Virus record (IMG/VR): IMGVR_UViG_2681813321_000001
Location: 1-4,125 of that record
Length of the DNA: 4,125 bases
DNA from: a virus
Taxonomy: Duplodnaviria; Heunggongvirae; Uroviricota; Caudoviricetes
Reading direction: 5' to 3' (one strand)
How positions within the stretch are numbered: the stretch's first letter is position 1; each line of letters begins with the position of its first letter. Shown piece by piece: positions 1 to 4,125 of this stretch. A program made the translations under genes and the position numbers. The notes under the pieces were generated by a model, which saw only the letters and a program-made list of their open reading frames with translations, did not search any database and was not told the DNA's origin.

Positions 1-192
1 CTATTTCACCTTAATCTCAACATTTCGCAGCTTTAGCTCTACTGGCAGGTCTGACTTTCCTGTTAATGCTAATGCGAGATTTTCAGGAGTAATGAGAGCA
101 GTTATTGTTTTCCCCATCGCCAGACGAATAATCATTCGTATCTCGCGATCGTCACATGCTCCCGGTCGAACAATTGATATTTGTCCGTTCAT
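1..192 (-). CDS. small hypothetical prophage protein (63 aa)
   Basis: Minus-strand ORF ending with TAG at 3..1. The track start at 213 is a TTG codon; the in-frame ATG at 192..190 is preceded by AAGGAG with a 6-nt spacer and sits 1 nt after the TGA of the upstream gene (196..194), so I place the start at 192. No family recognised. Confidence 0.45.
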   Translation of the reverse strand: MNGQISIVRPGACDDREIRMIIRLAMGKTITALITPENLALALTGKSDLPVELKLRNVEIKVK

Positions 193-193
193 C

Positions 194-661
194 TCACTCT
201 CCTTTGATGCCAATGTTTACAGCCTGACAAGCCTCTTTGAGCACCCAGTCAACAGCGTCTTTCCATGCTCCGGTTTCGACTGGCGGATTTTCACTCTTAA
301 CCTGTTCATAGAAGCGCACCGCTTTAATCAATCCTTCGGGTGTCAGTGGCACAGGCTGGGCCGTGAATAACGCCTGAATTTCATAGTTCGGCCTGTCGTT
401 GCAATCCTCTTTTGTCGGTACATATTTCCAGTCACCAACCCACGGCTTCTCCTGAAAGTTCGTAACGCCTTTTCTCACGTAGCGATATCGCCATGTCACC
501 GGTTCGGCTTCCAGCGATGCCAGCGCGACTTTAAATGCGGTAAGTACGTTTTTAACCACATCGATTTTGAATACTATTTCATCACATACAAACGATTTAT
601 CGTCTACTACCGTTTCAATTCCGGTAATCGTGTTTTGTAGCCATTTGGTTAATTCAGCCAT
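194..661 (-). CDS. hypothetical prophage protein (155 aa)
   Basis: ATG at 661..659, TGA at 196..194; a long ORF on the same strand as all neighbours and tightly coupled to the next gene. Preceded by the only sizeable intergenic gap among the small genes (662-792). No family recognised. Confidence 0.6.
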   Translation of the reverse strand: MAELTKWLQNTITGIETVVDDKSFVCDEIVFKIDVVKNVLTAFKVALASLEAEPVTWRYRYVRKGVTNFQEKPWVGDWKYVPTKEDCNDRPNYEIQALFTAQPVPLTPEGLIKAVRFYEQVKSENPPVETGAWKDAVDWVLKEACQAVNIGIKGE

Positions 662-670
662 TTTTCATTA

Positions 671-686
671 CCGCCCTTTCGGGCGG
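671..686 (-). promoter_or_regulatory. GC-only 6-bp stem with GAAA tetraloop (minus strand CCGCCC-GAAA-GGGCGG) 9 nt upstream of the start codon of the 155-aa gene
   Basis: Read directly from the sequence. It overlaps the position where a Shine-Dalgarno element would sit (AAGGG is in the loop and 3' stem). Not followed by a U-tract on either strand. Confidence 0.3.
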
Positions 687-742
687 TCTCCTGATGTTCT
701 GAGAGTGCAGGAATCCCTCCGGTTAAGGATTTAATAAAATTC

Positions 743-780
743 ACTTCTGATTTAAATTTTTCAGTGTTTTGTTGTCAGGT
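743..780 (-). promoter_or_regulatory. candidate sigma70-like promoter in the 131-bp AT-rich intergenic region
   Basis: On the minus strand: CTGACA (plus coordinates 778..773), a 17-nt spacer, then TTAAAT (755..750). Matches are 5/6 and 4/6 to consensus. Weak, and by eye only. Confidence 0.2.
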
Positions 781-792
781 GGTTTATCGCCT

Positions 793-1104
793 TTATGCTT
801 CAACCTTATTTCTCAGCCATACACAAACCGGACCATCTTCAGTGTCATGAATGGAACCAATGAACCAGCCTTCACCTTCCGGGCGCTCCGGTTTCCAGGA
901 GGCAATATCGGGACCATCTGCGTCCAGATTAAAATCATCTTCATCCATAGTTCTGATGGTCCATTGAAGATTATTTCCCTCCATCCATGCGTTAAACTCT
1001 TCCGTTGAAATATGTTCTCTACCATCACAGAATTTTTCATATTCAGGATGCGTCCAGCAGCCATATTCATCACGTACTACTGGTATTTCTTTAATTTCAT
1101 TCAT
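793..1104 (-). CDS. hypothetical strongly acidic small protein (103 aa)
   Basis: ATG at 1104..1102 preceded by GGGAG with a ~7-nt spacer; overlaps the end of the upstream gene by 8 nt. By my count about 25 Asp/Glu against 9 Lys/Arg. Contains GEGWFIGS, similar to GEGWLIGW in the 120-aa protein. Confidence 0.6.
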   Translation of the reverse strand: MNEIKEIPVVRDEYGCWTHPEYEKFCDGREHISTEEFNAWMEGNNLQWTIRTMDEDDFNLDADGPDIASWKPERPEGEGWFIGSIHDTEDGPVCVWLRNKVEA

Positions 1105-1351
1105 TTCTGTTCTCCCACGTTTTCAGACTTTCACCACAGAACGGACAAAATGAAACCCGCACTGGTGATTTAGAAAATTCACCGGAACGCAACATCACCA
1201 AATCAGGGCCGCGAGTTAAACTCTCATTCCAGATTTTGTATATCAGCAGACCTTTTCGCGCCGTGTATTCAGCATCATGCTCAAGGGATTTTGCCAGTGC
1301 TGCACATGGTTCTATCTTATTGCCATTAATTTGGCATTTTGACTCACTCAC
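1097..1351 (-). CDS. hypothetical small Cys-pair protein (84 aa), possible zinc ribbon
   Basis: The track ORF begins at a GTG at 1387; I prefer the in-frame GTG at 1351..1349 because it is preceded by AAGGAGG (1364..1358) with a 6-nt spacer and forms a GTGA overlap with the upstream stop (1350..1348). The protein has C-x12-C near the N-terminus and CPFC near the C-terminus. Confidence 0.5.
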   Translation of the reverse strand: MSESKCQINGNKIEPCAALAKSLEHDAEYTARKGLLIYKIWNESLTRGPDLVMLRSGEFSKSPVRVSFCPFCGESLKTWENRNE

Positions 1352-1587
1352 TGGTTGCCTCCTTTGCGGATCTGCGCTGCGATGCACGAAAAAAAAGACT
1401 CTCGCGTATGACTGTTAAGAGCTGGCGCGAACGCCGCGTTAAGAACGGCAGCATCACAGCCGTCATCGATATAGAGCGCAATTTTTTTCTCTAGGCGTGC
1501 TTTAGCTTCCTGCAACTGCATACCCCGGCACGCACGCGGGATATACTCAGCAATTTGAGCGATAGATTTTTCGTTCTGTTTAAACAT
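1348..1587 (-). CDS. hypothetical prophage protein (79 aa)
   Basis: ATG at 1587..1585 preceded by GAGGTG; overlaps the upstream gene's TAA (1582..1580) by 8 nt; TGA at 1350..1348. No family recognised. Confidence 0.55.
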   Translation of the reverse strand: MFKQNEKSIAQIAEYIPRACRGMQLQEAKARLEKKIALYIDDGCDAAVLNAAFAPALNSHTRESFFSCIAAQIRKGGNQ

Positions 1588-1783
1588 GCTTCACCTCGAT
1601 AGGCTTGATGGTATCGATCAGCAGTCGGCGGCGAGTATTTTCTGCAAAGTGGCGGCGTCCGGTTTCTTTGTGGTAAAACTCGTTTTTTCCGACGACCCAC
1701 ATCCGCTTTGTCTGGTGCAGTTTTTTTACCTGCGGACCGTCTCGGGTGATAACAATTCCCGTATGAGTTTTTATCACGCTCAT
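1580..1783 (-). CDS. hypothetical small basic protein (67 aa)
   Basis: ATG at 1783..1781 forms an ATGA overlap with the stop of the upstream gene (1782..1780); GGAG lies ~9 nt upstream. Lys/Arg-rich (about 14 basic against 6 acidic), so possibly nucleic-acid binding. Confidence 0.5.
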   Translation of the reverse strand: MSVIKTHTGIVITRDGPQVKKLHQTKRMWVVGKNEFYHKETGRRHFAENTRRRLLIDTIKPIEVKHV

Positions 1784-2142
1784 TTCTTATTCTCCGGTGC
1801 TTTTGGCATTACTGCCCAGTGAGTGATATTGACGTTTTCAAGGTCCCCGACCTGAAATGTCCACTGCCATTCTCCGGTTTCTTTTTGTCCCCAGGTGTAC
1901 CAGAGAGAACGCCAGCCAATCAGCCAGCCTTCTCCGTTAGCATCAAATAACAGAACACTTTCATTTGCTGGCGGCAGTTCAGCTGACACTGGCATTATTT
2001 TGTTTTCCAGTGCCGCACATTTAGCTTCAAGCGCATCGAATTTACGTACCAGGTACTCAGCATTTGTTTCATTCACTTTCAGATCTCGCGGTACACATTT
2101 CCCGCGAAGAAACCCTTCCATTTCGAAAACATTCATGCGCAT
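1780..2142 (-). CDS. hypothetical prophage protein (120 aa); by position and length the yfdS-equivalent gene, with a DUF551-like C-terminus
   Basis: ATG at 2142..2140 with GGAG ~9 nt upstream; overlaps the yfdR stop (2135..2133) by 10 nt. It lies immediately downstream of yfdR, as yfdS does in CPS-53 as I recall, and has the same length. The C-terminal ITHWAVMPKAPE resembles the THWMPLPEPP ending I associate with DUF551 phage proteins; this needs a database check. Confidence 0.6.
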   Translation of the reverse strand: MRMNVFEMEGFLRGKCVPRDLKVNETNAEYLVRKFDALEAKCAALENKIMPVSAELPPANESVLLFDANGEGWLIGWRSLWYTWGQKETGEWQWTFQVGDLENVNITHWAVMPKAPENKK

Positions 2143-2669
2143 TTGCGTAACTCCGATAACTCGTTAAAACGTTCCATAAACATCCCGTAGGCATGGCCTG
2201 GTGACAGTGGAATAACTTTGAACATCTCTGTTGCCGGGATGCCTTCCAGTACAGGCCAGAAAGAGCCATCATCAAGCCCGAGATCGCGGCGTTCGGTTGC
2301 CAGCATAATGAGATCGGCATATTTCACTGGCGTGCTCATAACAGGAGGTAACCCGTATTTCTCACGGATTACGGCGTCTATTTTTTCTTCCATCCGTTTA
2401 TAGTCAGGAAGAAGTCGTTTCAGTGGCGCGGGGATGTCCTGGCAATATGCTTCTGTTGCATCATGCATTAACGCTTCAAAAGCAAATTCCTGCGGCACCA
2501 GCTGGCTGCAAAGCACCGCATGCTGGGCGACACTGTAGAAGTGTGAAAGATGTCCTGCAAAGCGACAGATATTTGAAAGGGAAACTGCGATATCGTTAAT
2601 CACGATGTCGTCTTTATTTATCTTGTCATAATAAAAATGCTTCCCGGAAAAAGTTTTAATAAATGACAT
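2133..2669 (-). CDS. yfdR: HD-domain phosphohydrolase, YfdR-like (CPS-53 prophage), 178 aa
   Basis: The protein starts [21 protein letters not shown] and carries HD-superfamily motifs (AGHLSH, then LMHDATEAY, then downstream Asp residues). The track ORF starts 9 codons earlier at a GTG (2696) that is itself part of the Shine-Dalgarno GTGGAGAAC; the ATG at 2669..2667 with GGAG 8 nt upstream gives 178 aa, the length I recall for E. coli K-12 YfdR. Confidence 0.85.
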   Translation of the reverse strand: MSFIKTFSGKHFYYDKINKDDIVINDIAVSLSNICRFAGHLSHFYSVAQHAVLCSQLVPQEFAFEALMHDATEAYCQDIPAPLKRLLPDYKRMEEKIDAVIREKYGLPPVMSTPVKYADLIMLATERRDLGLDDGSFWPVLEGIPATEMFKVIPLSPGHAYGMFMERFNELSELRKCA

Positions 2670-2918
2670 TTTGTTCTCCACGTATATGCACTGCACCGCG
2701 CTGAATTCTGGTAAAAGGAAGCCCTCACCATCCGGTGATTATTGAGTTAATTACGTTTCCATAAATGCCCCCGCAGGGGCATTTGCAGTAATGAAATCAG
2801 GCGGTGAAAGTACCAATAAAGGTTTCTACTTTGCTGTCTTTGAATTTCTCAACAAGCAGATCACGAAATTCGTTAGCCATTTCTTCCTGCAACGCTTCCA
2901 GCTGAATAATGCGCAGAA
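2246..2918. repeat. tandem direct repeat, copy 1 (673 bp): yfdR 5' two-thirds, yfdR leader/intergenic, and the 3' end of the yfdQ-like frame
   Basis: Direct comparison with 2919..3592: about 99% identical (6 substitutions plus one 1-nt indel). Begins with CCAGTACAGG (2246-2255). Confidence 0.9.
2763..2784 (-). promoter_or_regulatory. perfect 9-bp inverted repeat (AAATGCCCC / GGGGCATTT, 4-nt loop) in the yfdR leader; possible weak terminator, attenuator or processing stem-loop
   Basis: Read directly from the sequence, 13-34 nt downstream of the chimeric ORF stop and ~95 nt upstream of the yfdR ATG. On the transcribed minus strand the stem is followed by AUUUAUGG, only a short U-run, so not a strong canonical intrinsic terminator. 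Confidence 0.35.
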
Positions 2919-3342
2919 CCAGTACAGGCCAGAAAGAGCCATCATCAAGCCCGAGATCGCGGCGTTCGGTTGCCAGCATAATGAGATCGGCATATTTCAC
3001 TGGCGTGCTCATAACAGGAGGTAACCCGTATTTCTCACGGATTACGGCGTCTATTTTTTCTTCCATCCGTTTATAGTCAGGAAGAAGTCGTTTCAGTGGC
3101 GCGGGGATGTCCTGGCAATATGCTTCTGTTGCATCATGCATTAACGCTTCAAAAGCAAATTCCTGCGGCACCAGCTGGCTGCAAAGCACCGCATGCTGGG
3201 CGACACTGTAGAAGTGTGAAAGATGTCCTGCAAAGCGACAGATATTTGAGAGGGAAACTGCGATATCGTTAATCACGATGTCGTCTTTATTTATCTTGTC
3301 ATAATAAAAATGCTTCCCGGAAAAAGTTTTAATAAATGACAT
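2797..3342 (-). CDS. chimeric ORF from tandem duplication: YfdR N-terminus (141 aa) fused in frame to YfdQ C-terminus (40 aa), 181 aa
   Basis: The 5' part (3342 down to ~2929) is nearly identical to yfdR 2669..2256 (1 synonymous difference); the 3' part (2918..2797) is nearly identical to the last 122 nt of the gene at 3592..3471 (1 non-synonymous difference, Leu vs Val). The join falls in the shared 10-bp CCAGTACAGG, which encodes P-V-L in both parents. It has the same RBS and ATG context as yfdR (GTGGAGAACGAAATG). The HD motifs lie in the retained N-terminal part. Whether it is expressed or functional is unknown. Confidence 0.5.
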
Positions 3343-3592
3343 TTCGTTCTCCACTTTATATGCGCTGCACCGCGCTGAATTCTGCTAAAAGGAAGCTCTC
3401 ACCATCCGGTGATTATTGAGTTAATTACGTTTCCATAAATGCCCCCGCAGGGGCATTTGCAGTAATGAAATCAGGCGGTGAAAGTACCAATAAAGGTTTC
3501 TACTTTGCTGTCTTTGAATTTCTCAACAAGCAGATCACGAAATTCGTTAGCCATTTCTTCCTGCACCGCTTCCAGCTGAATAATGCGCAGAA
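2919..3592. repeat. tandem direct repeat, copy 2 (674 bp)
   Basis: Begins with CCAGTACAGG (2919-2928); the same 10-mer recurs at 3593-3602 immediately after the copy, giving three occurrences at every repeat boundary. Differences from copy 1 (copy-2 coordinates): 3250, 3345, 3355-3356, 3364, 3385, 3397, 3566. Confidence 0.9.
3437..3458 (-). promoter_or_regulatory. second copy of the same 9-bp inverted repeat, downstream of the yfdQ-like stop
   Basis: Identical sequence to 2763-2784, displaced by 674 bp as part of the tandem duplication. Confidence 0.35.
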
Positions 3593-4125
3593 CCAGTACA
3601 GGACGATCGCCAGTGATAATGCTGAGGCGTAATTTAAACGGACGTTCTTTCAGGCCTTCAAACGGAACGCATTTAAATTCAAATGCCACTGGCATAATGT
3701 CTTTGGTTTTCGCTTCGACAGACTCCATCAGGGAGCGTTTGCCGCTGAAGTCATTGTCTTCAAAATCAGCGGTCTGGTTTGCTTCAATTGTGATTTTACG
3801 GACTGCCGCAGCCGCTTTGGTTGCCTGAATGGTGTCACCATTAGCATCAAAGCCCACAAGGTAGTCGGCCCAGTCTTCAATCCATTCTGCCAGTGACTTC
3901 TGGGAGTTACGCTCGCCATTAACAGACAACAGAGCAGAAAACGGTGCTGTCTTTTTCAGTTTGAGGGTGGCGGTGTTATCTGCGTGACCTGGTTCATCAA
4001 TAGTACCCAGGTTAAGCACACTGACGGCTCGCATATTATCGGCATCGATAAAGCAGCGGGTGCCTTCATCTGCAAGATCTTTAGAATAACGGGTAAAGTC
4101 ATCGATGCTGGCAGTGGAAAGCGCA
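3471..4125 (-). CDS. yfdQ: YfdQ-like prophage protein (DUF2303 family as I recall), 5'-partial; upstream neighbour of yfdR
   Basis: The reading frame is open from the window edge (4124) to TGA at 3473..3471, at least 217 codons. The track start at 4034 is only the first in-frame ATG; the frame continues upstream with no stop, so the true start is outside the window. Assignment rests on position immediately upstream of yfdR plus size (K-12 YfdQ is 274 aa as I recall), not on a verified alignment. Confidence 0.7.

Follow-up and report, generated by a model that had tools for sequence, protein, structure and literature searches.

A known yfdQRS gene block of lambda-like Escherichia coli prophages carrying a private tandem duplication and a hybrid YfdR-YfdQ reading frame

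The viral DNA analyzed here, positions 1 to 4,125 of the IMG/VR record IMGVR_UViG_2681813321_000001 (Caudoviricetes), carries the yfdQ-yfdR-yfdS module, which is an already known and named gene block of lambda-like Escherichia coli prophages. We refer to this whole stretch of 4,125 nucleotides (nt) as the window. Its only new element is a tandem duplication with a fusion of yfdR to yfdQ, a singleton of an ordinary mechanistic type within an otherwise known module. What is observed are near-identical versions of YfdR, YfdS, and the visible part of YfdQ in an early-operon context, with the HD site of YfdR intact. The explanation that we consider likely for the whole is that the window comes from the leftward (pL-type) early operon of a lambdoid E. 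coli prophage of the SfV/mEp460-like kind, that its YfdR binds DnaA and dampens replication initiation together with YfdQ and YfdS, and that the duplication is private to this element and left the hybrid open reading frame (ORF) as a by-product.

All long ORFs in the ORF list of the window lie on the minus strand. The intact yfdR (2133..2669) encodes 178 amino acids (aa), of which 175 are identical in E. coli K-12 YfdR (b2361) without gaps. The protein begins with MSFIKTF, a GGAG Shine-Dalgarno sequence lies 8 nt upstream of the start, and the three differences from K-12 (residues 151, 155, and 169) all fall within the C-terminal 28 aa. The upstream gene, yfdQ (4124..3471), is cut at its 5' end by the window edge, leaving residues 58 to 274 of a 274-aa protein. 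This portion shares 214 of its 217 residues with K-12 YfdQ, matches the Pfam family DUF2303 (PF10065) with 246 bits (cut-off, 26.6) as well as PHROG 210, and is 100% identical to the full-length protein cluster P0267. Downstream, the DUF551-related yfdS (1780..2142; 120 aa) overlaps the end of yfdR by 10 nt; its product agrees with K-12 YfdS at 116 of 117 residues and with PHROG 583 at 8e-82, so the orthology holds although the Pfam DUF551 score (19.9 bits) stays under the cut-off of 22. Hence, YfdR has the neighbors of a YfdR orthologue, with yfdQ upstream and an overlapping yfdS downstream. The RefSeq annotation of DNA that is 99.7% identical over the whole window reads "YfdQ family protein" and "yfdR: 5'-deoxynucleotidase" (WP_000008178.1). 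A first-pass annotation made from the sequence had proposed a yfdQ-yfdR(-yfdS) type module at 2133-4125, with a YfdR match at 2133..2669 and a DUF2303 protein upstream. The module and both proteins proved correct, at 98 to 99% protein identity to K-12; yfdQ and yfdR lie where it placed them, and yfdS lies just to the left of 2133 (2142..1780). The fourth gene of the K-12 cluster, yfdT, is absent: the ORF that follows yfdS is unrelated to it, and none of the six small ORFs of the window corresponds to yfdT.

The module is carried by about 3,000 of 5,426 complete E. coli genomes and by many lambdoid phages, in the leftward early operon. The gene order there is cI-like repressor <- yfdP - yfdQ - yfdR - yfdS - small ORFs - DUF551 - exonuclease - xis - int. 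In three related prophages (L127, L129, and L130), the DUF551 gene, which lies further along the operon, forms a fusion with a dATP/dGTP pyrophosphohydrolase domain (PF04447); the early operon of YfdR in these relatives thereby includes a second nucleotide-hydrolase activity.

YfdR is a distant member of the HD superfamily and the exact orthologue of K-12 YfdR, not a YfbR equivalog. In an alignment of 42 homologues (61 to 98% identity), residues H40, H50, H69, D70, and D78 are invariant, and E73, D119, and E126 are conserved in at least 90%. Four of the invariant residues (H50, H69, D70, and D78) are the His/Asp metal-binding residues that the first-pass annotation expected on proper alignment. 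Both BLASTP and hhalign align H69-D70, E73, and D78 of YfdR with H68-D69, E72, and D77 of YfbR, and H50 and D119 are taken as the first His and the last Asp of the site by analogy of their motifs (VAQH and KYAD) and from the alignment with Atu1052. The AlphaFold2 model of YfdR (pLDDT, 86.9; pTM, 0.86) is an eight-helix bundle. A Foldseek search with this model returned Atu1052 (PDB accession number 2gz4) as the only strong solved relative, with a TM score of 0.81 and an E-value of 3.5e-9, and 2gz4 is also matched by sequence (E-value, 2e-13); the next matches, OxsA, HDDC2, and YfbR, were all nonsignificant (E-values above 0.1). PHROG 318 ("deoxyribonucleoside 5' monophosphate phosphatase") matches at 4e-110. 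The family models scored lower than required: 24.3 bits for Pfam PF12917 (YfbR-like; gathering cut-off, 25.9), 17.0 bits for PF13023 (HD_3; cut-off, 22.5), and 19.9 bits for the NCBIfam YfbR equivalog model (cut-off, 122). Of the matches expected by the first-pass annotation, that to YfdR is near-identical, and those to the Pfam HD models fall just short of their cut-offs; the HD assignment rests on motif conservation, fold, and orthology to K-12 YfdR rather than on a passing Pfam match. By its H...HD...D residues and its modeled all-alpha HD fold, YfdR is a predicted HD-type metal-dependent phosphohydrolase; the 5'-deoxynucleotidase activity is likewise predicted, from the RefSeq and PHROG annotation. 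The wider YfdR family also includes proteins of 350 to 400 aa (P0122, P0125, P0128, and P0135) that carry a tandem pair of YfdR-like HD domains; duplication of this HD domain has thus become fixed elsewhere in nature. For YfdQ, the predicted model had a pLDDT of 74, and the structure search gave no informative solved relative.

The duplication consists of two head-to-tail copies with a period of 673/674 nt, copy A at 2246-2928 (683 nt) and copy B at 2919-3602 (684 nt), which overlap in the 10-nt word CCAGTACAGG at the junction (2919..2928). The parental sites of this word lie at 2246-2255 in yfdR and at 3593-3602 in yfdQ. Copy B comprises the 5' 441 nt of yfdR, the yfdQ-yfdR intergenic region (3343..3470, minus strand; 128 nt), and the final 132 nt of yfdQ with the stop codon; the corresponding intergenic region of copy A (2670..2796, minus strand) is 127 nt long and supplies the GGAG ribosome-binding site of the intact yfdR. 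The copies differ by 7 substitutions and 1 indel (about 1.2%). CCAGTACAGG is the single longest exact word common to the yfdR and yfdQ regions; yfdR holds it once, and yfdQ holds it once, close to the end of the gene. In 25% of shuffles the two regions share a word of 10 nt or longer, and therefore the existence of such a word is not notable in itself; the informative point is that the join falls on it. The rearrangement is a microhomology-mediated tandem duplication, and the duplicated N-terminus of the HD protein noted in the first-pass annotation is confirmed by the two copies and the ORF that they create (3342..2797).

This hybrid ORF (2797..3342, minus strand) encodes 181 aa, or 185 aa from an upstream GTG at 3354, and fuses YfdR residues 1 to 147 to YfdQ residues 237 to 274. 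On the coding strand CCAGTACAGG reads Pro-Val-Leu in the same frame in yfdR and yfdQ, and therefore the join (...GSFWPVL/VLRIIQ...) is in frame. Upstream of this ORF lies a separate copy of the spacer with the hairpin and the GGAG site. The hybrid has Pfam matches to both YfbR-like and DUF2303, with a PF12917 score of 26.4 that, unlike that of intact YfdR, exceeds 25.9; PHROG 318 covers residues 1 to 143, and PHROG 18285 and PHROG 210 cover residues 139 to 181. All HD metal-binding and catalytic residues are retained, and YfdR residues 148 to 178 are gone. The lost part holds the invariant residues P154, P157, and F164 and a helix (157-177) that is confidently predicted by AlphaFold2 and is aligned also in Atu1052 (2gz4). 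In the YfdQ model, the tail gained in exchange forms the end of a beta-strand, a helix (241-259), and the final strand. Most probably the hybrid is a by-product of recent date, neutral or mildly deleterious, rather than an adapted new gene, because it is private, has lost a conserved structural element, and results from a join that is in frame one time in three by chance.

The junction was recovered from none of the public collections searched. By megablast, it is absent from the 5,426 E. coli genomes and from 50,697 GenBank phage records, where only two-piece matches about 683 bp apart were found, that is, the normal single-copy arrangement. Exact scans with a junction 39-mer and 22-mer gave no hit in IMG/VR, GTDB representative genomes, and JGI metagenomes; the wild-type site, scanned as a positive control, was present in at least 120 viral contigs. 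When the hybrid protein was looked up exactly, with each of its two start codons, the gene index returned no copy, and no end-to-end homologue was among the best 120 matches listed.

The sequence differences between the copies bear on their history. Five linked differences fall within 52 nt (2672-2723) and are not random. In this patch, copy A has the allele of strain RM10809-3 and partly of K-12 (the L003/K-12 type), and copy B has the allele of the closest relatives (the L001 type); copy A thus carries a patch of at least 52 nt from another allele. Among 125 fetched loci there were 0 recombinant combinations of the spacer haplotypes, and each full 60-mer haplotype occurred exactly in 6 to 7 loci. 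Outside the patch both copies are nearest to the same lineage (L126/L001), and the only private difference is 2892A, which changes Val to Leu in the tail of the hybrid. We also considered a simple model with two intact parents. It is not favored over duplication plus gene conversion: no database sequence is 100% identical to 1-2928 or 2919-4125, and both parts are nearest to L126/L001. The most economical account is that an L126-like prophage underwent a microhomology-mediated duplication and received a short gene-conversion patch from a further yfdQR module; alternatively, two different parents may have been joined. Under the former, illegitimate recombination at the microhomology between yfdR and yfdQ would have produced the 673/674-bp duplication, leaving yfdR intact, and yfdQ intact as far as the window reaches, and inserting the in-frame hybrid between them. 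The conserved loop and C-terminal helix of YfdR (148-178) would thereby have been swapped for an unrelated strand-helix-strand tail.

Public protein data contain other rearrangements of yfdQ and yfdR (P0001, P0005, P0011, P0024, and P0033): a YfdR with an internal duplication of 33 aa, deletion fusions of YfdQ to YfdR in three different forms, and a read-through fusion of YfdR with YfdS. The yfdQ/yfdR locus seems prone to illegitimate recombination, or these rearranged proteins are assembly errors.

The link of this module to host replication comes from K-12. [quoted passage not shown] In the same study, yfdQ plus yfdR plus either yfdS or yfdT in multicopy inhibited initiation at oriC and formed the minimal set that suppresses the over-initiation of hda-185, with yfdS able to replace yfdT. 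In the window, this set is represented by intact yfdR and yfdS and by yfdQ from residue 58 on, with no yfdT. The first-pass annotation had cited this paper, and both the citation and the content that it gave (DnaA binding and inhibition of initiation by the yfdQ-R-S-T cluster) are correct. Its idea of a host-takeover cassette is an inference that the authors of the paper had already drawn: they speculated, by analogy with lambda P, about a past shut-down of host replication by the phage, and they mention the SfV homologues (PMC4776307). A paper published in eLife in 2025 continues to refer to YfdR as a prophage inhibitor that competes with DnaB for DnaA domain I, and a literature search on YfdQ or DUF2303 found no newer functional work. 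We hypothesize that upon prophage induction the early operon would be transcribed and that YfdQ, YfdR, and YfdS would then dampen initiation of the host chromosome; a weak 5'-deoxynucleotidase chemistry of YfdR might be a second, parallel, or ancestral activity.

Several points weigh against this explanation. The effect on replication was seen only with the genes of a K-12 cryptic prophage in multicopy or overexpressed, deletion of yfdQRST has no initiation or hydroxyurea phenotype, and the authors "cannot exclude" an overexpression artifact (PMC4776307). DnaA binding by the YfdR allele of the window, with its three C-terminal differences from K-12, or by the hybrid, is assumed by analogy with the K-12 protein. 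We infer expression from a pL-type promoter from the gene order, and no sigma-70-like promoter was found within 2100-4125. In addition, with copies about 1.2% apart, a "very recent, simple" duplication needs an extra step, namely conversion by or recombination with a second yfdQR module.

A different view of YfdR is one that we regard as possible but clearly the weaker: its real job would be nucleotide-pool chemistry early in infection, on deoxynucleoside monophosphates or a modified or signaling nucleotide, DnaA binding would be a side effect of overexpression, and YfdQ and YfdS would act in DNA metabolism, jointly or independently. The RefSeq and PHROG names (5'-deoxynucleotidase or deoxyribonucleoside 5'-monophosphate phosphatase) point this way, as do the strict conservation of the HD metal-binding and catalytic residues, which speaks for selection acting on catalysis, the pyrophosphohydrolase domain that related prophages carry in this operon, and the artifact conceded by the authors of the DnaA study. 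Moreover, the YfdR family counts 22,772 cluster representatives, far beyond the hosts with an E. coli-type DnaA Phe46 interface. However, YfdR's affinities for nucleotides are far below those of YfbR, and its function "remains elusive" (PMC4776307, citing Zimmerman et al. 2008), while purified YfdR binds DnaA specifically and dependent on Phe46 (PMC4776307). The two roles are also not mutually exclusive.

Other doubts concern the duplication and its product. It is unlikely that the join is a chimeric molecule or a mis-assembly, produced by template switching during amplification or by joining two allelic yfdQR modules in the sample. Such an origin would agree with a junction found nowhere else, with a short window, and with copies that carry different natural alleles, as expected from mixing the reads of two modules; several modules per genome are common in E. 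coli, in up to 5 to 7 places. On the other hand, 10 nt of shared sequence are too few to produce the join in a k-mer assembly, which makes an artifact of that type unlikely, and so reads that span the junction must exist. The join falls on the longest available microhomology, the mark of genuine illegitimate recombination, both flanks stay in perfect register, and the independent rearrangements of the yfdQ/yfdR pair in public data indicate that the locus does rearrange. If the duplication is real, the hybrid might be a functional new gene that provides an extra DnaA-binding HD core, a dominant-negative partner of YfdR, or an HD core tethered to contacts of the YfdQ C-terminal helix. We find this doubtful in the extreme, despite the in-frame fusion with its own ribosome-binding site, the complete set of catalytic residues, the exchange of a helix of about 21 residues for a 19-residue YfdQ helix, and the private nonsynonymous change from Val to Leu at 2892 in the yfdQ-derived tail. 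An in-frame join is expected in one of three cases by chance, invariant P154, P157, and F164 and the confidently modeled C-terminal helix are missing, the databases searched hold no second occurrence, tandem duplications of this size are unstable and usually transient, and one private substitution is no evidence of selection. The earlier suggestion that the duplication could change dosage or specificity is weakly grounded for the same reasons, since the product is truncated, lacks the C-terminal helix, and occurs nowhere else; the ORF itself is all that speaks for it. Least probable of all, and hardly to be expected, is a newborn functional hybrid, with a catalytic or DnaA-binding HD core plus a YfdQ helix, that alters the strength of the host initiation shut-down, with the allele differences reflecting long maintenance of the duplication. 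If that were nevertheless the case, the hybrid may couple YfdR to the partners of YfdQ or poison YfdR oligomers. We thus return to a yfdQRS module with a private structural variant that is probably neutral.

The remainder of the window contains six small ORFs of the early left operon, all on the minus strand and of unknown function: 67 aa (1783..1580, directly after yfdS), 79 aa (1587..1348), 84 aa (1351..1097; PHROG 4030), 103 aa (1104..793), 155 aa (661..194), and 63 aa (192..1). Most of them overlap their neighbor by 4 to 8 nt. The 84-aa ORF encodes two Cys pairs, including a C-terminal CPFC, which suggests a small zinc-ribbon protein. The slot between the 79-aa and 63-aa ORFs (194-1351) is mosaic among otherwise near-identical prophages: the 84-, 103-, and 155-aa ORFs occupy it in the window and in L001, L126, and L130 to L133, and a single Ead/Ea22-like gene occupies it in mEp460 and others (the comparison included L005, L127 to L129, L134, and L135). 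Just upstream of where the 155-aa ORF starts, the sole sizeable noncoding gap of the operon (662-792; 130 nt) contains the GC-rich hairpin ACCGCCCGAAAGGGCGGT; no Rfam match was obtained there. A second hairpin, stable and GC rich with a stem of 8 bp (AAAUGCCCC-UGCG-GGGGCAUUU), immediately follows the stop codon of yfdQ, and each repeat copy has one (2761-2786 and 3435-3460, minus strand). Lacking a proper U-tail, it may be a weak terminator or an RNA-stabilizing element; the folds of the two whole spacers are not significantly more stable than those of shuffled sequences (z, -1.4 and -1.9), and the terminator-like matches on the coding (minus) strand of 2100-4125 were unconvincing. A scan against Rfam gave no match at an E-value of 1 or below, and the PADLOC defense-system models gave no match to the 10 window proteins at an E-value of 0.01 or below.

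Few accessory blocks are commoner in the lambdoid prophages of E. coli than the yfdQRS module, and a connection of this module with DnaA has been in print since 2016. The evidence for this link comes from multicopy experiments with an allele from a cryptic prophage, and the same genes lie in the early operon of inducible phages (mEp460 and Stx2), in which a shut-off of host replication is directly testable. The window adds a clean natural example of a chimeric ORF that arose by microhomology-mediated tandem duplication. As the hybrid lacks the C-terminal helix of YfdR and has the active site, it could serve directly as a construct for locating the DnaA-binding part of YfdR.

Compared with known HD proteins, YfdR has in common with YfbR (PDB accession numbers 2par and 2pau), HDDC2, OxsA, and Atu1052 the all-helical HD fold, the H...HD...D site, and the E/D residues of HDxxE(x4)D. 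However, its identity to YfbR is only about 33% over 40 residues, the hhalign probability is 55%, and the Pfam YfbR-like model stays under its cut-off; Atu1052, a protein of unknown function, is the sole clear structural relative. The closest characterized gene cluster is yfdQ-yfdR-yfdS-yfdT (b2360-b2363) of the K-12 cryptic prophage CPS-53 (KpLE1), which has the same three proteins at 98 to 99% identity in the same order, the same yfdQ-yfdR gap of 127 to 128 nt, and the same yfdR/yfdS overlap of 10 nt. CPS-53 has yfdT where the window has the unrelated 67-aa ORF, and only the window has the extra hybrid ORF from the tandem duplication. The two are different prophages; the near-identical relatives of the window element adjoin zur/dinF and not argW.

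The same early-left-operon module is present in phages that are or once were viable, namely, mEp460 and mEp460_4F5, SfV (orf29-31), phiSTEC1575-Stx2k, and Stx2c-converting phages, with DNA identity of 97 to 99.5% over most of the window. These phages have a single yfdR and no junction, in contrast to the duplicated arrangement of the window, and in mEp460 an Ead/Ea22-like gene takes the place of the 84-, 103-, and 155-aa ORFs. In its mechanism the rearrangement resembles the microhomology-mediated tandem duplications and fusions of mosaic lambdoid phages, which likewise have a head-to-tail repeat, a join at a short word, and a chimeric ORF. It differs from ordinary duplications of this kind in that its two copies carry different natural intergenic alleles, and therefore one has to assume either two different parents or a further event of recombination or conversion.

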